Both the position numbers and the translations under genes were made by a program. Of a DNA stretch of 20,000 nucleotides, positions 2 to 15,170 are shown in pieces. Every line of letters begins with the position of its first letter. Within the stretch, counting starts at the first letter, position 1. The notes under the pieces are model-generated. The model did no database searches. It saw only the letters and a list, made by a program, of their open reading frames with translations, and was not told where the DNA came from. Source of the stretch: an uncultured virus (IMG/VR IMGVR_UViG_3300042449_000787) (taxonomy: Duplodnaviria; Heunggongvirae; Uroviricota; Caudoviricetes); IMG/VR virus record IMGVR_UViG_3300042449_000787; one strand, 5' to 3'.

Positions 2-739
2 CAAAAATATGTACAAGGAAACCCCTCGAAAGGGGTTATTCCTCGTAGGGTATTAGTATTAGATGTTAACGATGAGTTTGAGGACATAAGGGCTATTAGG
101 GTTAGTGATGTTATGCGTTTTTCCGCACACCCAAAAGTAGAAGCTAGAAGGATAAGACCATTGCATGAAAACGGAGTTAGAATGACACTTACTGAAATTC
201 AAGAGGTGCTATTCAAAATCTTAAACGATTATAGAGGTGGGCTTTTATTGATTGAGGATATTAACAGATACATTTCTGATTATTTGCCTAATGACCTTGT
301 GGGGGCTATATGCACCAACAGACATACGGATACAGATATTATTTTGCATTTTCAATCGGTAGGAAGGATTTCACCTAAAATATGGCAGAACTTGAATTGG
401 ATTAGGTTTCACAAAAATACCGATTCAGTAGATAAACACCGTACAAAGTTTGAGGACAAATACGAATTATTGAAATTAGTAGAGAACTATGTTAATGCCG
501 AGTATCATGCAGGAGACCAAAGAATTTATATTTATGTAGATATAGATGATGAAAAAATAAAGGGAGTTGACCGTAAAAAGTTCGATGCTGTTTTAGACCA
601 ATATTTATCTGAAAATTACAGAAAGCTAATTTCCCCAATGTTACAATCAAAGGATTTAGGTAAGGGCGCAAAGAAATATACACCTCAAGAAGCGGTGGCA
701 ATTCAAAAAGAACGAATAACCAAATATTATTTAACATAA
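2..739 (+). CDS. FtsK/HerA-superfamily (A32-like) P-loop ATPase, putative genome packaging ATPase; 5' truncated
   Basis: Frame is open from base 2 (QKYVQGNPSKGVIPRRVLVLDVNDEF...), upstream of the track's Met at 113. Has the hhhD-x-x-x-E strand RVLVLDVNDEF, Walker B-like GLLLIED and the R-H...Q motif TNRHTDTDIILHFQS. Walker A would lie outside the window. Confidence 0.75.
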   Translation, partial: QKYVQGNPSKGVIPRRVLVLDVNDEFEDIRAIRVSDVMRFSAHPKVEARRIRPLHENGVRMTLTEIQEVLFKILNDYRGGLLLIEDINRYISDYLPNDLVGAICTNRHTDTDIILHFQSVGRISPKIWQNLNWIRFHKNTDSVDKHRTKFEDKYELLKLVENYVNAEYHAGDQRIYIYVDIDDEKIKGVDRKKFDAVLDQYLSENYRKLISPMLQSKDLGKGAKKYTPQEAVAIQKERITKYYLT

Positions 740-857
740 AAAAAATGAGTTAGTAGCTCATTATTTATATTTCGGCTTCCACTCCGACAACACAAATATA
801 AAAAAAAATATTATCTTTACCATAAATAATCAATTTTTTAATTAAAAAAAAGAAAAA

Positions 858-1121
858 ATGGAAAAAAAATTAGAAGAAAAAAAAAGAGGGTTTATTGCAA
901 AATTATTTTGTGAAAAAAACGAACCAAGTTCAAAAAGATTTGTTGGCATTATAGGGTCAATAACATTATTTAGTACTTTATTTGCAAACAGCTTTACGCA
1001 TATAAGCCAAGCACCAAGCGAAGCATTGGTAAACGCAGTAGCATTATTGTCTTTTGGTGCATTAGGTATCACTGGGGCAGAAAGAATATTTGGTAAAAAA
1101 GAAAATAATAACGAACAATAA
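858..1121 (+). CDS. Holin-like small membrane protein
   Basis: 87 aa, two hydrophobic segments (FVGIIGSITLFSTLFA; LVNAVALLSFGALGITGA), charged termini, immediately upstream of the endolysin. Confidence 0.65.
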   Translation: MEKKLEEKKRGFIAKLFCEKNEPSSKRFVGIIGSITLFSTLFANSFTHISQAPSEALVNAVALLSFGALGITGAERIFGKKENNNEQ

Positions 1122-1133
1122 AAATTAAAAATT

Positions 1134-1601
1134 ATGAAATTATCAGAGCATTTGGATTTATCAGAAGTAACAAGAAGTGAAACTGCAAAAAGAAAAGGTA
1201 TTAGCAACATGCCGACACCAGAGCATTTGGAAAATTTTAAAAAATTGGCTGAAAATATTTTTGAACCGATTAGAAAACATTTTGGAGTGCCAATTCACAT
1301 TTCAAGTGGATATAGAAGCAAGGCTTTAAATACTGCTATTGGCGGAAGTTTAACAAGTCAACATTGCCAAGGTGAGGCTATTGATATTGATATGGATGGT
1401 AGTTCTAATGGGGTTACTAACAAAATGGTATTTGACTACATAAAAGCTAATCTAAATTTTGACCAATTAATTTTTGAGTTTGGAACAAAAGATGCACCTG
1501 ATTGGGTACACGTTTCATTTGAATCAACTGGAAAACAACGTAAGCAAATTTTAAGAGCAATTAAAAGTGGTGGTAAAACTGCATACCAACCTTATGCGTA
1601 A
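1134..1601 (+). CDS. Peptidase M15A-family (D-Ala-D-Ala carboxypeptidase-like) endolysin
   Basis: ISSGYRS, SQHCQGEAIDID and DWVHVSF motifs give the H-x6-D...H zinc ligand pattern. Confidence 0.9.
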   Translation: MKLSEHLDLSEVTRSETAKRKGISNMPTPEHLENFKKLAENIFEPIRKHFGVPIHISSGYRSKALNTAIGGSLTSQHCQGEAIDIDMDGSSNGVTNKMVFDYIKANLNFDQLIFEFGTKDAPDWVHVSFESTGKQRKQILRAIKSGGKTAYQPYA

Positions 1602-1625
1602 CATTTAACAGTTTAAATAGATTTA

Positions 1626-2741
1626 ATGAAAAACCTATCAAAAGAAGAGTTATTGAGCAGATTGGAAGCAATCAATAGGAGCAATGCTATTATTTACTTT
1701 GACCTGCATGGTACTATATTAGGTGTCAATGACATTTTTTTAGAAGTAATGGGTTATGGAATAGGTAATCACGAAGAACTTATTGGAAAACACCATAGCA
1801 CTTTTGTGTGTCAAGAATACGCAAAATCTCTTGAATATGAGAAGTTTTGGGACATATTAAGAAGCGGTAAATATTATCAAGGAGAATTTGAACGAAGAAA
1901 AAAAGATGGAAGTCTTATCAATCTTCAAGCAACTTATAATCCTATTTTTGATGATAGTGGCAAGATTACTAAAATAATGAAAATTGCTACTGATGTTAGT
2001 GCTATCGTTAGTAGTAAAAAACAGATAGATGCTATCAATAGAAGTACAGCTCTTATTACTTTTAATGTTGAAGGAATCATAACAGATGTTAATTCTATAT
2101 TTTTAGAAGCTATGGGATATAAATCTAATGAAAAAACTAAAATAATTGGAAAGCATCATAGTATTTTTGTAACTTATCAGTATTCACAGTCTGATGAATA
2201 TAACAATTTTTGGGAAAATTTAAGAAAAGGTAAGTTTTTTGATGGAATTTTTGAAAGGGTAAAAGTAGATGGTTCTACAATTTATTTACAAGCATCTTAT
2301 AATCCTATCCTTGATAGTAAAGGCAACATTACAGATGTGGTTAAAATTGCAACTGATATTACGGAATCTATAAATAGTAAGAAAAAAATAGAGGAACTAA
2401 CAAATAATTTGAAATTTGAATTGGAAAACTCACAAAAACTTAAAGATTCAATAGAAGTCGAAAAAAATATGGCTTTGAATGATTTAGATGTAATGATAAA
2501 AAAAAGTCAAAGTGAACTGATAAAAATAATCGTTAAATGTGCTTTAGCAGTAATAATTGGTGTTGGAATTGTAACTACTATATTATATTGGGTAGCGATT
2601 GTAACAAACAAAGAAACTCAAATAATTGGCTCAACTTGGAGTAATATGTTTAGTGTTTTATTGACAAACGCATTTTCAATAGTTGGTACAATTATGGGCA
2701 TTAAATATGCCACTCAAGAAAATAATAATAAAAATAATTAA
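1626..2741 (+). CDS. Tandem PAS-domain protein with coiled coil and two C-terminal TM helices
   Basis: Two ~120-aa repeats (AINRS..IxF..G.I..VN..FLE.MGY..IGKHHS.FV..FW..LR.GK..G.FER...DGS.I.LQA.YNPI.D..G.IT...KIATD) typical of the PAS/PAC domains of soluble chemoreceptors. No MCP or kinase domain follows; it ends in two hydrophobic helices. Confidence 0.85.
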   Translation: MKNLSKEELLSRLEAINRSNAIIYFDLHGTILGVNDIFLEVMGYGIGNHEELIGKHHSTFVCQEYAKSLEYEKFWDILRSGKYYQGEFERRKKDGSLINLQATYNPIFDDSGKITKIMKIATDVSAIVSSKKQIDAINRSTALITFNVEGIITDVNSIFLEAMGYKSNEKTKIIGKHHSIFVTYQYSQSDEYNNFWENLRKGKFFDGIFERVKVDGSTIYLQASYNPILDSKGNITDVVKIATDITESINSKKKIEELTNNLKFELENSQKLKDSIEVEKNMALNDLDVMIKKSQSELIKIIVKCALAVIIGVGIVTTILYWVAIVTNKETQIIGSTWSNMFSVLLTNAFSIVGTIMGIKYATQENNNKNN

Positions 2742-2746
2742 AAATT

Positions 2747-3397
2747 ATGATTACAACAATTAACAAAAATAGGATATTTACATGGGTATTACTAATATCT
2801 TGCTTGGTACTAGTTTCACAACTATTTCAAAAATGCGAAAGTGAGAAATTACAATTAGCTAACGTGGAAGCTCTAAATAGTCAATCTAAAGTTTATAAGC
2901 TTAAAAATGGACAATTAGTAACTAGCGTTGAAACTTTATCTTATAGCAATAGTCAGTTAAAAAACTCTATTGTAATGAAAGATAAAAAAGTTAAAGAGCT
3001 AACTAATAAATTTTCTAAAGTTCAATCTCTTACAAAGTATGTTACAAACACAAAATTTGATACAATAGAGCTTCGATACAAAGATACCGTACCTTGCGTA
3101 TTTGAAAGAAAAGATAGTTTATTAAAGGAATGGTATCATATAGCTTATAAGTCAAATCAAAAGGGAATTGAAATAACCGAACTATCAATACCAGACAGTG
3201 TGATTGTAGTTACTGGAATTAAGAGAAAATGGTTTTTAGGTAAGCAAACACAAACCACAGATATAACTCATGCAAACCCATTTGTTCAGACTAACAATGT
3301 TCAACACATTGAAGTAGTAACTCAAAAAAAATGGTACGATACTTTCCTATTTAAAGTCGGATTAGGATTTATAGGCGGAGTTTTAATAACTAAGTAA
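2747..3397 (+). CDS. Spanin-like envelope protein (N-terminal signal/TM with Cys, C-terminal TM)
   Basis: Hydrophobic N-terminus ending LFQKC, coiled-coil then beta-rich middle, C-terminal FLFKVGLGFIGGVLITK; last gene before the terminator of the lysis cassette. Confidence 0.5.
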   Translation: MITTINKNRIFTWVLLISCLVLVSQLFQKCESEKLQLANVEALNSQSKVYKLKNGQLVTSVETLSYSNSQLKNSIVMKDKKVKELTNKFSKVQSLTKYVTNTKFDTIELRYKDTVPCVFERKDSLLKEWYHIAYKSNQKGIEITELSIPDSVIVVTGIKRKWFLGKQTQTTDITHANPFVQTNNVQHIEVVTQKKWYDTFLFKVGLGFIGGVLITK

Positions 3398-3426
3398 GTT
3401 ACCAAAAAAATAATTAACTACTAAAC

Positions 3427-3452
3427 AGCTATCGGAAACGGTGGCTTTTTTT
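3427..3452 (+). terminator. Rho-independent terminator
   Basis: AGCTATCG-GAAA-CGGTGGCT stem (8 bp with 2 GU pairs, GNRA loop) followed by a T run. Confidence 0.85.
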
Positions 3453-3609
3453 GTGCTTTGTAAATTAAAAAAAATCTTTTCAAAAAAATTATTTCAGTTT
3501 ATTTTTAAATAAATGCCTAGATACTTCTTTCATTTAACATAATTTTGGATTGTAATTATATCTGAATATAATTATCATTTAAAATAAGTTTAGTTACAAT
3601 CATTCTGAA

Positions 3610-3786
3610 ATGAGAAACGAGATTAAAAAGGTTACAAAGATTACAAAGATTACAAAGATTACAAAGATTACAAAGATTACAAAGATTACAAAAACATTAG
3701 CCATCGTAATAGATGGAGTTTTAATAGCTAATTAAATAGATAGAAAATTTTTATCTTCAAGGATTAGTTTGCCGAACAAAATTTAA
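3610..3786 (+). pseudogene. Small ORF (41 aa, 3610..3735) with ITK repeat; possibly a decayed small membrane protein gene extending to 3786
   Basis: MRNEIKKVTK(ITK)6TLAIVIDGVLIAN*IDRKFLSSRISLPNKI*; resembles the basic-hydrophobic-basic small proteins downstream but has an in-frame TAA at 3733. Confidence 0.4.
3621..3692 (+). repeat. 9-bp tandem repeat GATTACAAA
   Basis: Six perfect copies at 3639-3692 preceded by two degenerate copies. Confidence 0.95.
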
Positions 3787-3830
3787 GAGTAAAAAAACAC
3801 AAAACACAAAACAAATAAAAACATAAAAAA

Positions 3831-4532
3831 ATGTCAGTAAGAAATTATTTAGCAAGAGCGCAAAGAAGCGCAATGGAGAATTTTTCTAATGCAGATGGAT
3901 TTATAGATGATGATTTATCATTCTCTGGTGAAGACTTCTTCAATGCACAAGGAAATTCAATGATAGGGCAACAAGCGGCTCAAACGTCTCAACCATATAT
4001 TATAGATATTACATCTACTTCTGGTTCAGCAGTATCAAATTTTGAAGTATTAGGGTCTTACCAATACATCAATAACGCAGGTTTTACACCAAACGGAGAA
4101 TTGACTATTGGGTCAATTACAGTTAGTTCTGGAATTTCAGACATCTCTTATAGAGAGATGCTATATCAATTTATGAACAATCCTTATTCTGTTGGTTTGA
4201 CTTATATTCAATCAGCTACGGCTAACCAAGTATTAGAAACTCTTTCAGTTAACACTAAAGATGCAAATGGTAACTTGGCTCAAAAGACTTTAGTTCCGAC
4301 TATTGACCCTTACCAACAACAAACTACAATCATTGCAATGAAATATGCTTATCGTATTGATGGTTTCACAAAAATCATCATCCGTCAAATTCTTGCAAAT
4401 GCAACTGTAAAACTTTACTTCTACCCAGCAGACAACATAAACCTTGCTCGTGCTTTAGGAGGACAGTCAGTTAGTAAACAATTTGGTTCTCCAAAAGTTG
4501 CTAGTGGACAAACTATTAAGATTGCGCAATAA
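3831..4532 (+). CDS. Candidate major capsid/structural protein (possibly single jelly-roll)
   Basis: 233 aa, soluble, acidic low-complexity N-terminal ~50 aa then alternating beta-strand-like segments. Follows the longest intergenic region, has its own terminator and appears to favour TTC/AAC/TAC codons. Fold is inferred, not demonstrated. Confidence 0.5.
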   Translation: MSVRNYLARAQRSAMENFSNADGFIDDDLSFSGEDFFNAQGNSMIGQQAAQTSQPYIIDITSTSGSAVSNFEVLGSYQYINNAGFTPNGELTIGSITVSSGISDISYREMLYQFMNNPYSVGLTYIQSATANQVLETLSVNTKDANGNLAQKTLVPTIDPYQQQTTIIAMKYAYRIDGFTKIIIRQILANATVKLYFYPADNINLARALGGQSVSKQFGSPKVASGQTIKIAQ

Positions 4533-4624: not shown

Positions 4625-5107
4625 ATGTCAGATTATAACGATATTGCATTAAGAAATCCACAAGGAGCTGTAAGCGTTATATCCTCTTTCGGATATGAAA
4701 TACTAGACCGAAGTAATTTAGGTCAAAGCTTAAACGAGTTAATAGCTCAAGAAGGTGAGCCAGCTTTAAGAAAAGTTATGGAAATACACCCAGACAAAGA
4801 TGTTATTTTAGAATTATTTTCTAATAAAACTACAGAACCAGAAAAAAACGGGTGTGGCTGTTCGTCTTGTAATGAAAAAAAATCCGATAAAATATTTGAG
4901 CGTAACTCTGAAGGAAATTTTGAAAGATATGAAAACTTCATTAACTTCAACGGAATACTAGAAGAAGCAAAAAAAACTGCTAGCACAACTGCTAACACAA
5001 ATGCTAACACAACTTCTAATACTAATATTTTAGCACATCAAACAAACAATATATTAATAGTCGCAAGTTTATTTATAGCGACTGTTTTAATTCTAAAAAT
5101 TAAATAA
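4625..5107 (+). CDS. C-terminally anchored membrane protein with GCGCSSC motif
   Basis: C-terminal ILIVASLFIATVLILKIK; Cys cluster; T/N-rich linker. Confidence 0.7.
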   Translation: MSDYNDIALRNPQGAVSVISSFGYEILDRSNLGQSLNELIAQEGEPALRKVMEIHPDKDVILELFSNKTTEPEKNGCGCSSCNEKKSDKIFERNSEGNFERYENFINFNGILEEAKKTASTTANTNANTTSNTNILAHQTNNILIVASLFIATVLILKIK

Positions 5108-5108
5108 A

Positions 5109-5876
5109 ATGAACGAACTATCAAATTTAGGGGCAGATGTAATTGTAAACAGCGTTATAGAAAATAGAGGCGATGTTGTAGACTTACTTTTTAAAAACGG
5201 AGCAATAGTGCCTGACGACTTAACTAATTTAGAGTTGTCTCAAATAGTCACAGAGCTTTTAAAAAATTCAAGTAATTTCCAAAATGAATATTTGGATTTT
5301 ATAACTAATCTTATAATTTCAAAAAATCAGATTGTAACGAGTAATTATAGTAACTTAGATGGTGATTTTTACAATGAAGATGAGATGGGTAATTATAATA
5401 ACGTAGAAGGAACTTTTTACGATGTAGATGAAATGAGTGATTATAATAACTTAGAAGGAACTTTTTACGATGAAGATGAAATGAGTGATTACAGTAATGC
5501 TGTAGGTAGCTTTTCAGATACTTTTAGCGTAGCTCCAAGTCCTTTTACTCCAAAAAATACAGCTCAGACTAGTCCAAGTACAGGTTCAACAAATACAACA
5601 ACTACAACGCCAAGAACTGGATTTACGTTAGATAAAGGCTTAGATATTATAACCAAAGGTTTAAATGCTTTTTTAACTTTAGATACTAACAAAACAAATA
5701 GAGCTTTGGCAGATGCTTCTGTAAAAACTACTCAATCTTCAACGATTATTAGTACGCCAGATACATATACAAAAACTAAAAAATCAAATACTACAACGTA
5801 TGTTATTTTAGCATTAGTGGGTGTTTTAGTAGTTGGTGGTGGAATTATGTATGCAGTTAAACGTAAAAATTCTTAA
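5109..5876 (+). CDS. C-terminally anchored protein with acidic 16-aa repeats
   Basis: C-terminal TM YVILALVGVLVVGGGIMYAV followed by KRK; internal repeats. Confidence 0.75.
   Translation: MNELSNLGADVIVNSVIENRGDVVDLLFKNGAIVPDDLTNLELSQIVTELLKNSSNFQNEYLDFITNLIISKNQIVTSNYSNLDGDFYNEDEMGNYNNVEGTFYDVDEMSDYNNLEGTFYDEDEMSDYSNAVGSFSDTFSVAPSPFTPKNTAQTSPSTGSTNTTTTTPRTGFTLDKGLDIITKGLNAFLTLDTNKTNRALADASVKTTQSSTIISTPDTYTKTKKSNTTTYVILALVGVLVVGGGIMYAVKRKNS
5343..5513 (+). repeat. 48-bp coding repeat, about 3.5 copies
   Basis: NYSNLDGDFYNEDEMG / NYNNVEGTFYDVDEMS / DYNNLEGTFYDEDEMS / DYSNAVGSF. Confidence 0.9.
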
Positions 5877-5878
5877 TT

Positions 5879-6190
5879 ATGTCTTTTTTTACAACAGACG
5901 CAGGACGAAACACTATAGGTGCAGGTATAAACAGTTTATTGAGCTTAGGAGTAACAGCAGTAGGTGCTAATCAAGACAGAAAATTATTAGCAGGTCAAGC
6001 AAATATTTCGGCTCAACAAAATCAAACCGCAATAGAAGTCGAGAGAGAAAGAACAAGACAAGCTCAATTAAACCTCGAAGCTTCAAGGGCTAAAGCTCCA
6101 GAATCTGGAAGTAAGGCTCTTTACATTGGATTAGCAATAGGAGGAGTAGTTATTTTAGGAGGTATTATTTTTGCGGTAACTAGAAAATAG
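5879..6190 (+). CDS. C-terminally anchored coiled-coil protein
   Basis: Gly/Ala-rich N-terminus, Q/E/R-rich helix, C-terminal TM. Confidence 0.75.
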   Translation: MSFFTTDAGRNTIGAGINSLLSLGVTAVGANQDRKLLAGQANISAQQNQTAIEVERERTRQAQLNLEASRAKAPESGSKALYIGLAIGGVVILGGIIFAVTRK

Positions 6191-13060: not shown

Positions 13061-14242
13061 ATGAAAAATTCAACAATTTTATTAGGCGTAGGTGGATTAG
13101 CAATAGCGTATTTTTATTTAAAAAATAAAAAACCACTATCTACTACATCGACAACTCAAACAAATGAACCAACAGGTTCAACAGGTTCAACAGGTTCAAC
13201 AGGTTCAACAGGTTCAACAGGTTCAACAGGTTCAACAGGTTCAACAAGTTCAACAGGGTCAACAGGGTCAACAGGGTCAACAGGGTCAACAGGGTCAACA
13301 GGGTCAACAGGGTCAACAGGGTCAACAGGGTCAACAGGGTCAACAGGGTCAACAGGGTCAACAGCATTAGTGGAAGAAATGGAAGAAATGGAACCAACGG
13401 TACAAACATCACCAACGGTACAAATACCTCCAACGGTACAAATACCTCCAACGGTACAAACATCACCAACGGTACAAATACCTCCAACGGTACAAATATC
13501 TCCAACGGTACAAACATTACCAACGGTACAAACATCACCAACGGTACAAACATTACCAACGGTACAAATACCTCCAATAATTATACCTTCTGTGGCTGAT
13601 ATTTCTTTAGGATTACAACCTATAACTACAACTACAAAACCTACAGTAGACACGGTTGTATCGGCATTTGCAGAAACGCAAACTGAAAACTATAAAAAAG
13701 CAAGAGAATTGTCAAGAAATATTAGCGCTCTTTTAATTAAAGTTGATTTATACAAAACTAAGAAAACTAAAAATAAAATCAGAAACGAAATATCAGATAA
13801 AACAAAGCAAGCAAATGCTTTGGGGTACAAAATATTGCCTTACGGTGAAATTGTAGCATTGAACGCTGTTGCAGATATTTCTTTAGGATTAAAACCAACA
13901 ACCGCTAACACACCAAGTTTTTTGACAAGAATTTTAGGAGGAACACTTACACCAAGTGCTTTAACTCAAGCAAGTAGTATGTCAACTCCAGCAAGTAGTG
14001 TGAAAACTCTACCAAGTTTTTTAGGAGGAGGACGAAGTATTACACCAAGTGTTTTAACTCAAGCAAGTAGTATGTCAACTCCAGCAAGTAGTGTATCAAC
14101 TCCAATAAATAGTATAAAAATTTTCGGAGGAAGAGTAATTCCAGTAAGCCCAACAAGTAGTGTAAAAACTCCGCCAATTTTTTTAGGGGGGCGAACAAGC
14201 GCAACAACAAATAGTTTTCTGTCAAAATTAAAAAGAAGATAA
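13061..14242 (+). CDS. Paralog family member 2 (MKxST anchor; TGS and PTVQ repeats)
   Basis: Anchor, (TGS)21, (PTVQxx)10, ADISLGL, ENYKKA...[17 protein letters not shown] tail. Confidence 0.85.
13172..13360 (+). repeat. 9-bp coding repeat (TGS) x21
   Basis: 8x ACAGGTTCA, 1x ACAAGTTCA, 12x ACAGGGTCA. Confidence 0.95.
13394..13573 (+). repeat. 18-bp coding repeat (PTVQ[TI][SPL]) x10
   Basis: CCAACGGTACAAA core in each unit. Confidence 0.95.
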
Positions 14243-14243
14243 T

Positions 14244-15170
14244 ATGAAAAGTTCAACAATATTAGGGGTTGGGATAATATCAGTAGTTGGTGTGGGTGCG
14301 TATTTTTATTTAAAAAATAAAAAACCACTATCGACAACATCGACAACAGGGTCAACAGGGTCAACAGGGTCAACAGGGTCAACAGGGTCAACAGGGTCAA
14401 CAGGGTCAACAGGGTCAACAGCATTAGTGGAAGAAATGGAAGAAATGGAACCAACGGTACAAACATCACCAACGGTACAAACATCGCCAACGGTACAAAC
14501 ATCGCCAACGGTACAAACATCGCCAACAATTACACCTTCTGTGGCTGATATTTCTTTAGGATTACAACCTATAACTACAACTACAAAACCTACAGTAGAC
14601 ACGGTTGTATCGGCATTTGCAGAAACGCAAACTGAAAACTATAAAAAAGCAAGAGAATTGTCAAGAAATATTAGCGCTCTTTTAATTAAAGTTGATTTAT
14701 ACAAAACTAAGAAAACTAAAAATAAAATCAGAAACGAAATATCAGATAAAACAAAGCAAGCAAATGCTTTGGGGTACAAAATATTGCCTTACGGTGAAAT
14801 TGTAGCATTGAACGCTGTTGCAGATATTTCTTTAGGATTAAAACCAACAACCGCTAACACACCAAGTTTTTTGACAAAAATTCTTGGACGAACACTTACA
14901 CCAAGTGTTTTAACTCAAGCAAGTAGTATGTCAACTCCAGCAAGTAGTGTGAAAACTCTACCAAGTTTTTTAGGAGGAGGACGAAGTATTACACCAAGTG
15001 TTTTAACTCAAGCAAGTAGTGTATCAACTCCAATAAATAGTATAAAAATTTTCGGAGGAAGAGTAATTCCAGTAAGCCCAACAAGTAGTGTAAAAACTCC
15101 GCCAATTTTTTTAGGAGGACGAACAAGCGCAACAACAAATACTTTTCTGTCAAAAGTAAAAAGAAGATAA
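14244..15170 (+). CDS. Paralog family member 3, near-duplicate of member 2
   Basis: (TGS)8, (PTVQTS)4; downstream sequence almost identical to 13061..14242. Confidence 0.85.
   Translation: MKSSTILGVGIISVVGVGAYFYLKNKKPLSTTSTTGSTGSTGSTGSTGSTGSTGSTGSTALVEEMEEMEPTVQTSPTVQTSPTVQTSPTVQTSPTITPSVADISLGLQPITTTTKPTVDTVVSAFAETQTENYKKARELSRNISALLIKVDLYKTKKTKNKIRNEISDKTKQANALGYKILPYGEIVALNAVADISLGLKPTTANTPSFLTKILGRTLTPSVLTQASSMSTPASSVKTLPSFLGGGRSITPSVLTQASSVSTPINSIKIFGGRVIPVSPTSSVKTPPIFLGGRTSATTNTFLSKVKRR
14346..14522 (+). repeat. (ACAGGGTCA)8 and 18-bp PTVQTS x4
   Basis: Arrays at 14346-14417 and 14451-14522. Confidence 0.9.

Follow-up and report, generated by a model that had tools for sequence, protein, structure and literature searches.

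The stretch examined here, referred to as the window, comprises 20,000 nucleotides (nt) of an uncultured virus of the Caudoviricetes (IMG/VR record IMGVR_UViG_3300042449_000787). It corresponds to bases 48,864-68,863 of a 101,210-base virus record that is rated complete by CheckV, and its G+C content is about 30%. Between an endolysin gene and a gene for a DUF6549 protein, the window encodes a 371-amino acid (aa) protein made of two PAS domains, a long helix and a C-terminal hairpin of two transmembrane (TM) helices, hereafter the PAS-hairpin protein. Comparison with its relatives indicates that the membrane hairpin is the most conserved part of this protein and its only visible output, and that the gene moves among unrelated phage backbones, nearly always among lysis genes. 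That the protein has some role in lysis timing seems probable, though well short of assured. The reading preferred here, itself held tentatively, is that it is an accessory, sensor-gated modulator of lysis timing that acts on the membrane independently of the holin and is not the primary holin.

Domain organization and predicted topology

Two PAS stretches are recognized in the 371-aa protein, with matches to PAS_3 (E 9.3e-25, 87.2 bits against a cut-off of 25.6) and TIGR00229 (E 9.6e-30, 103.3 bits against a cut-off of 22.9). Only PAS families were matched, with no kinase (HisKA/HATPase_c), methyl-accepting chemotaxis protein (MCP) signal (PF00015) or GGDEF domain anywhere in the sequence. 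Residues 251-371 match nothing in Pfam or PHROGs, holin families included, and no non-PAS model of NCBIfam matches the whole protein or its tail (residues 285-371). Two hydropathy peaks are seen, one spanning residues 298-316 and the other 341-359. The AlphaFold2 model, built from a 75-row alignment (mean predicted local distance difference test score, pLDDT, 86.9), contains two PAS folds, both with pLDDT >90, followed by an unbroken helix (residues 246-326), a four-residue turn and a further helix (residues 331-369). According to this model, TM helix 1 would cover approximately residues 293-320 and run straight on from a cytoplasmic stalk, which is probably a coiled coil in a dimer. The hairpin is predicted to have an N-in/C-in topology, with the PAS domains in the cytoplasm. 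An earlier note on this DNA, made from the sequence alone, had described two PAS domains and two C-terminal TM helices with no kinase, MCP or GGDEF output, and this description is borne out by Pfam, NCBIfam, hydropathy and the model.

The closest solved sequences to the first PAS domain (PAS1) are MmoS (3ewk, E 1.4e-11), NifL and Aer, and those closest to the second (PAS2) are Aer (8dik, E 4.7e-5) and MmoS. The closest folds are found in MmoS, DosP, NifL, LOV-HK and FixL, the top Foldseek match being 3ewk (E 5.6e-17). In Aer, the flavin is contacted by H53, which stacks on the isoalloxazine ring, by N85, which hydrogen-bonds flavin N3/O4, and by R115, which lies over N5 (PMC9668731). H53 aligns with H57 in PAS1 and H177 in PAS2, H57 being invariant in 61 sequences. 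Weighing against the preferred reading, N85 is replaced by Arg and R115 by Ala in both PAS domains, as judged from a phmmer alignment that uses sequence only and may contain register errors. A flavin assignment was thus rejected, as the pocket His alone is kept of the three Aer contacts. Sensing of redox state or oxygen through a cofactor, which the earlier note gave as common for such tandem PAS domains, is a putative role only. The PAS pair would sense an intracellular cue, and flavin is unsupported by the pocket residues.

Conservation of the membrane hairpin

Conservation and codon changes were counted in 61 distinct sequences of the window-type protein. Mean column identity is close to 0.90 for the PAS domains and to 0.84 for the stalk, and reaches 1.00 over residues 339-362. 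The outer loop and TM helix 2 (TM2; residues 331-364) are without any amino acid change (0 of 34 codons), while 31 of these 34 codons vary synonymously and the nucleotide identity of the region (0.861) is near that of the PAS parts (0.84-0.85). Because of this synonymous variation and the PAS-like nucleotide identity, the invariance is attributed to selection at the protein level rather than to recent spread. The gene is under strong purifying selection. TM2 carries a stripe of Ser, Thr, Asn and Gly together with a G-x-x-x-G motif, and an identical TM2 core is invariant in the relay-type relatives described below, at about 40% overall identity. This core reads W-S-N ... T-N-[AS]-F-S-I-[IV]-G-T; the window protein fits it and has the accompanying long helix and N-terminal input module, and a profile of the hairpin family matches the window gene with an E of 1.7e-44. 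The membrane tail, proposed earlier as the only visible output, thus coincides with the most conserved part of the protein. An internal second start at M290, as in a dual-start motif, was considered and rejected, Met being present at this position in only 50-80% of the 61 sequences, with Met-less variants among the short matches.

Distribution in viral and cellular sequences

Relatives of the PAS-hairpin protein are encoded by at least 280 viral stretches in IMG/VR, and the 80 of these 280 that were fetched are 77-94% identical to it over the full length. The protein database returned 4,954 matches; all but one of the best 120 (119) have lengths of 353-388 aa and identities of 82-95%. When the tail alone (residues 285-371) was compared by phmmer with 1.84 billion representative proteins, 92 matches were found at E <= 0.001 and 67 at E <= 1e-10. 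A search of the ESM Atlas with the tail gave a best cluster of viral hypothetical proteins at 0.87, which is under 0.9 and serves as a lead only. Among cultured-phage records, tblastn gives three, covering the PAS part only, and megablast of the whole window gave no match there. The stretch itself is present in 18 lake or freshwater DNA runs dated from 2016 to 2024.

In cellular genomes, represented by one genome for each of 185,579 species and searched with a sequence pattern and tblastn, the hairpin was found in eight loci, all on contigs of metagenome-assembled genomes (MAGs) from scattered phyla. PHROG-family genes occur on all six of the MAG contigs whose neighbouring genes were scanned, and five of the six carry hallmark phage genes (topoisomerase II subunits, a virion structural protein, endolysins, a holin). 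The hairpin family therefore appears to be phage-only and essentially absent from cellular genomes, instead of having its homologues mainly in cells and away from lysis genes. No published account of a PAS-containing or two-component protein encoded among phage lysis genes was found by full-text search (other papers may exist), and the hairpin family is undescribed.

Lysis-gene context

Neighbourhoods were compared in 81 loci carrying the PAS-hairpin gene. The gene calls are crude, consisting of the longest open reading frames (ORFs), clustered by BLAST and named by Pfam and PHROGs. Only 2 of 80 loci share the backbone of the window. Neighbours of the PAS-hairpin gene include GH19 endolysins, GH24 lysozymes, M15 peptidases, enzymes of a PG_binding_1 plus phrog_3000 type, Phage_holin_4_1 proteins and members of a family called c1, to which orf87 of the window belongs. 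The nearest endolysin is one gene away in 51 of the 81 loci, two genes away in 15 and three genes away in 3; in the remaining 12 no endolysin is in view, and at least 5 of these end right past the PAS-hairpin gene. These nearest endolysins fall into GH19 (27, plus one short GH19 fragment), GH24 (20), PG_binding_1 plus phrog_3000 (13) and M15 (8) groups. They lie downstream in 54 loci and upstream in 15, gene order being variable. When two-gene contexts are reduced to distinct ones (55, of which 47 are complete), an endolysin is present in 39 of the 47, an association that extends across many different phages. The proposal of a signal-gated holin or antiholin is accordingly supported in its link to lysis genes, since 66 of the 81 loci have an endolysin no more than two genes away; its holin identity is not, as the protein matches no holin family and the gene is optional.

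Candidates for a separate holin are frequent around the gene. A c1 member is found within two genes in 48 of 81 loci and directly adjacent in 40, Phage_holin_4_1 within three genes in 33, and one or the other within four genes in 62. No membrane segment was found in representatives of any of the four endolysin groups, so a hole-forming holin would still be needed. In the genome of the window, there is no match to Phage_holin_4_1 and no receiver domain, and the hairpin gene is the only one of its kind.

Relatives of the window backbone provide a second view of the gene. Through a conserved downstream gene (3831-4532), 39 such relatives were found, 38 of which hold both flanking backbone genes. 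Between these genes, 2 have a PAS-bearing cassette (the same contigs as loci L002 and L020), 11 have an M15 cassette devoid of the PAS-hairpin gene, 12 have no cassette and 13 have other content. Of these 11 PAS-less M15 cassettes, 8 retain a match to orf87. In two PAS-less relatives (L176 and L180), 12 nt separate the endolysin stop from the orf216 start, and the PAS-hairpin ORF of the window occupies that spacer. These comparisons indicate that the gene is optional, being dispensable in sister phages of the window lineage. Because DUF6549 genes follow the endolysin or peptidase gene in PAS-less relatives and in cultured phages, the ancestral unit would be an endolysin gene followed by a DUF6549 gene, with the PAS-hairpin gene as an insertion. 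The slot itself (740-3830), between the two conserved backbone genes, is variable across the relatives (L171-L208). In the 12 of 38 where these two genes are adjacent, the lysis cassette must be elsewhere, and others have differing sets of lysis genes.

A related kinase-receiver-hairpin relay

The 92 relatives of the tail have diverse N-terminal inputs, including PAS-PAS, single PAS, GAF, a SOUL-like fragment and a domain of about 36 residues without a Pfam match. Two more fusions of the hairpin, to GT2 and TsaD fragments, may be artefacts of gene calling. Most frequent among these is the small-domain form, encoded by at least 558 viral stretches; it belongs to what appears to be a relay (loci L082-L161), in which the hairpin protein is accompanied by a PAS/GAF histidine kinase and by a free receiver (143-154 aa). 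In 79 loci with a recognizable hairpin ORF, a Response_reg gene lies directly upstream of the hairpin gene in 73, and 64 also have a kinase with PAS/GAF and HATPase_c domains (HATPase_c E 7e-16) within two genes. The PAS pair of the window protein is 39.5% identical to that of the relay kinases over 253 aa (E 7e-50), and its helix-hairpin is 55.8% identical to that of the relay form over 113 aa; a long helix and hairpin are present in the predicted models of both. On these comparisons, the window protein seems to be a one-protein short cut of the phage relay. The two have in common the helix-hairpin output, a homologous PAS pair and occurrence in phage DNA only, but the relay uses three genes (kinase, free receiver and hairpin protein with a small N-terminal domain) in place of one.

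Neighbours in the relay loci include replication and chaperone genes such as those for topoisomerase II and Hsp70. Neighbours of the hairpin gene in loci other than the window match Phage_holin_4_1 and Phage_holin_10. Several loci (for example L096, L100, L146, L147) have two kinase genes with a 200-aa gene in between. Beside the relay, loci such as L099, L115, L127, L133 and L135 encode a full-length Hsp70/DnaK homologue (E 1.7e-255), and also a class II aminoacyl-tRNA-synthetase-like protein and a calcineurin-like phosphoesterase.

Stand-alone holin-like homologues of the tail, for which the earlier note had proposed a search, were not found among the forms checked. A search limited to proteins shorter than 204 aa gave 1982 matches, rejected as truncated gene calls; the 18 short matches inspected are collinear with inner stretches of the full-length sequence, and the internal Met, Val or Leu codons at which they begin are not conserved. 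In 80 viral loci closest to an 81-aa form, none of the 71 complete frames is below 200 aa, 54 have at least 330 aa, and the other 17 measure 200-329 aa, 12 of them being single-PAS forms (247-255 aa). Single-PAS variants (L222, L232, L248, L253, L275 and others) keep the N-terminus of PAS1 and the helix-hairpin, so the number of PAS domains is not fixed. To our knowledge, holins are known only as free-standing small proteins, and the lack of a free hairpin among the forms checked would set this family apart from them.

Cassette layout and partner genes

The four ORFs of the cassette lie head to tail on the + strand (858-1121, 1134-1601, 1626-2741 and 2747-3397; Table 1), separated by 12, 24 and 5 nt. 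The earlier note had placed the PAS-hairpin gene between the endolysin gene and the gene here called orf216 (spanin-like in that note), with gaps of 24 and 5 nt and a shared terminator, and the layout agrees with this placement. A scan of positions 600-4000 detected four terminator-like sites on both strands, compared with 0.9 +/- 1.0 in shuffled sequences, and none on the + strand within 858-3397. Co-transcription of the cassette is plausible, because the gaps are short and one terminator-like hairpin follows orf216 with none inside the cassette. Two metatranscriptome runs contain 0.23 and 0.07 of the sampled sequence words.

Table 1. Coordinates of the lysis cassette and of the parts of the PAS-hairpin protein in the window
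Feature	Position	Strand	Description
orf87	858..1121	+	87 aa; small membrane protein; two hydrophobic segments, charged C-terminus
Endolysin, Peptidase_M15_3	1134..1601	+	155 aa; PF08291, phrog_894
PAS-PAS/long helix/two-TM hairpin protein	1626..2741	+	371 aa
PAS domain 1, residues ~19-125	1680..2000	+	Pfam PAS_3/PAS_9; pLDDT >90
PAS domain 2, residues ~139-250	2040..2375	+	Second Pfam stretch; pLDDT >90
Continuous predicted helix, residues 246-326	2361..2603	+	DSSP on the AlphaFold2 model; stalk into TM helix 1
Outer loop and TM helix 2, residues 331-364	2616..2717	+	Invariant core of the hairpin family
orf216, DUF6549	2747..3397	+	216 aa; PF20186; spanin-like is a putative label
Terminator-like hairpin and T run	3427..3452	+	Stem 8 bp, loop 4 nt, T7 tail; hairpin proper 3427-3446

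The orf87 product has moderate hydropathy peaks at residues 28-46 and 56-74 and no Pfam or PHROG match. It is the candidate class-II-type holin of the window cassette, and the c1 members are 14-85% identical to it. A predicted complex of its chain with the helix-hairpin (residues 246-371) scored 0.00, against a mark of 0.32, which counts neither for nor against a contact between the two. The 155-aa endolysin matches Peptidase_M15_3 (PF08291, E 2.2e-20) and the PHROG endolysin family phrog_894 (E 3.7e-39), and hydropathy shows no TM-like segment in it, the N-terminus included.

The orf216 product matches DUF6549 (PF20186, E 9e-8). A hydrophobic segment lies in its N-terminal part, and its C-terminus, hydrophobic and rich in Gly, is conserved. 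All 10 matching cultured-phage records that contain DUF6549 homologues are from phages of Bacteroidota, so the host is probably a freshwater member of this group; in two of these records, the homologue is directly 3' of a peptidase gene. DUF6549 proteins may be the spanin equivalent of Bacteroidota phages. In the lake-phage DUF6549 proteins, a conserved Cys and then acidic residues follow the N-terminal hydrophobic segment, and the Gly-rich hydrophobic C-terminus is present in all members compared (window, L209, L210). The DUF6549 gene comes directly after the endolysin gene in cultured Flavobacterium and Tenacibaculum phages. PADLOC defence profiles gave no family for the PAS-hairpin protein, orf87 or orf216.

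Several other features of the window were observed. The sequence ATTAAAAATT is common to short spacers directly 5' of ATG codons, at 1122-1133 and 2742-2746 in the window and at the corresponding junctions of L176 and L180, and no Shine-Dalgarno-like sequence is present in the spacers before the endolysin and orf216 starts. In the spacer past the lysis cassette (3620-3692), a 9-nt tandem repeat with the unit AGATTACAA occurs in 8.1 copies with 95% matches; it falls in a 41-codon ORF (3610-3735), where its in-frame reading is a K-I-T repeat. Just past the cassette (4625-6190), three consecutive genes of 160, 255 and 103 aa have no family match, and each has a single C-terminal hydrophobic anchor, giving a run of tail-anchored membrane proteins. 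At 13061-15170, two neighbouring genes match collagen-like tail-fibre PHROG families.

Possible roles of the PAS-hairpin protein

In the preferred reading, the cytoplasmic PAS pair, probably dimeric, would bind or sense an intracellular cue, and the signal would pass down the unbroken helix into TM helix 1 as a piston or rotation movement, altering the packing of the hairpin in the inner membrane. The hairpin would then self-assemble via its polar Ser/Thr/Asn/Gly face and perturb membrane energization, so that the firing moment of the real holin of the cassette (here probably orf87) would be shifted. As precedent, KCN leads to premature lysis, and a drop of 40% in the proton motive force triggers the lambda S holin (PMC3166277). 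A modulator is ranked above a holin because the gene is optional in the window lineage and another holin candidate is nearby in most loci, and a generic action is ranked above a specific antiholin because the hairpin stays the same whichever of the unrelated holin and endolysin families lies next to it. A broader form of the idea, in which the hairpin would be a universal, holin-independent lysis trigger that depolarizes the membrane, is plugged into any cassette and is driven by PAS/GAF domains or by a kinase and receiver, is rather doubtful. If it were true, phages would compute the moment of bursting from intracellular cues via their own signal transduction, and lysis control would be distinct from all described holin/antiholin pairs.

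Several points weigh against the preferred reading. Gene order is an association only, and the 81 PAS-hairpin loci and 79 relay loci are non-independent samples. A conserved membrane target in the host, with no bearing on lysis, would account just as well for the invariance of TM2. In the relay form, the tie to lysis is looser: 33 of 79 loci have an endolysin directly next to the block, and 37 of 79, many of them truncated, have no recognized endolysin. These observations bear on the possibility that the protein is a membrane effector unrelated to lysis, encoded by a late accessory gene for which cassettes are a permissive insertion site, and acting for instance in superinfection exclusion, in the control of a conserved host membrane machine or in the shut-off of host energy use. 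Such a role is unlikely, but has to be reckoned with: TM2 is invariant beside variable phage partners, the gene is optional and mobile, and relay loci lacking a recognized endolysin have topoisomerase II and Hsp70 genes as neighbours. However, a permissive site poorly explains the presence of an endolysin in most complete contexts across four endolysin groups and leaves unexplained the insertion exactly between the endolysin gene and its usual partner, and PADLOC offers no match.

Alternatively, the hairpin could bind the holin of its cassette as a specific antiholin or pro-holin, blocking or promoting oligomerization, with the PAS pair setting the release, much as RI does for the holin T of phage T4. 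Membrane-anchored antiholins that bind holins are known (PMC11413866), the gene is optional as antiholins are, and c1 or Phage_holin_4_1 genes adjoin or lie close by in many loci. This is nevertheless quite unlikely, as the neighbouring holin candidates come from unrelated families (c1, Phage_holin_4_1, Phage_holin_10), with wide divergence within c1 itself, and the loop and TM2 never change, whereas a lock-and-key partner should co-vary. It is less likely still that the protein is itself a class-II-type two-TM holin, whose triggering is held or released by its own PAS domains. The predicted N-in/C-in topology, the polar face of TM2 and its G-x-x-x-G motif would suit a holin, as would the absence of Phage_holin_4_1 from the window genome; moreover, 11 of the 81 loci have no other holin candidate within four genes, so that the hairpin could itself be the holin there, which also counts against the preferred reading. 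On the other side, 11 of 38 sister phages keep the same cassette minus the PAS-hairpin gene, another candidate is usually nearby, and the hairpin invariably comes attached to a long helix with an input module; its failure to match any holin family in profile searches speaks against this alternative and against the preferred reading alike. Finally, many relatives bear the JGI label 'methyl-accepting chemotaxis protein', which would suggest a captured chemoreceptor fragment or a decaying host gene. With no MCP signalling domain, an intact frame under strong purifying selection in 61 sequences and a tail without a cellular counterpart, this origin is scarcely credible.

Comparison with known systems

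Class II holins and pinholins have two TM helices with N-in/C-in topology. The PAS-hairpin protein resembles them in its two TM helices, short outer loop, charged C-terminus, polar/Gly face of TM2 and endolysin neighbour, but differs in its length of 371 aa, in its roughly 290 cytoplasmic residues, in the lack of a free hairpin among the forms checked and in the co-occurrence of other holin candidates. Aer, MmoS and NifL (3ewk, 2gj3, 8dik), which are PAS sensors of the flavin clade, provide the nearest solved sequences and folds, and the pocket His of Aer is kept. A hairpin serves as membrane anchor in Aer, too. The output of Aer is a HAMP domain and a chemoreceptor signalling domain (PMC13232288); in the PAS-hairpin protein, by contrast, nothing follows the hairpin, which is the best conserved part, and N85 and R115 of Aer are not kept. 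The protein thus resembles Aer cut off past its membrane anchor, except that the anchor here appears to be the conserved output.

The antiholin RI of phage T4 is a sensor of superinfection, and its target is the periplasmic domain of the holin T, to which it binds (PMC11413866). As in the role proposed here, a membrane-associated accessory phage protein sets the time of lysis by a signal and is dispensable for lysis itself. Unlike the PAS-hairpin protein, RI is not known to contain a PAS domain or any other standard sensor domain, and the two have no sequence likeness; the PAS-hairpin protein would combine a cytoplasmic sensor with a two-helix hairpin as effector. The vibriophage ICP1 has a holin, TeaA, and an antiholin, ArrA, with environment-dependent lysis timing, and before ICP1 such sensing had been characterized only in T-even coliphages (PMC7182436). 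TeaA and ArrA are not known to involve a sensor-domain protein, and there is no homology to the PAS-hairpin protein, family searches having given no link. By analogy, the PAS-hairpin protein would work most like the lysis-inhibition systems, without sharing their sequence, sensor type or compartment. What seems to be new is that signal-dependent lysis control, a known kind of regulation, would be built from an undescribed, phage-only hairpin family.

Significance

The timing of lysis determines the burst size and fitness of a phage. Signal-dependent timing is represented here by the lysis inhibition of T-even phages and of ICP1, which responds to superinfection (PMC11413866, PMC7182436). If the PAS-hairpin protein controls lysis, it would be the first case known to us of standard intracellular sensors, or of a phage two-component relay, feeding into lysis. 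Both the PAS-hairpin form (at least 280 viral stretches) and the relay form (at least 558) abound in lake viromes, and the hairpin could serve as a compact, portable sensor-to-membrane actuator. With one small gene, the question whether bursting is timed by host physiology is made directly testable.

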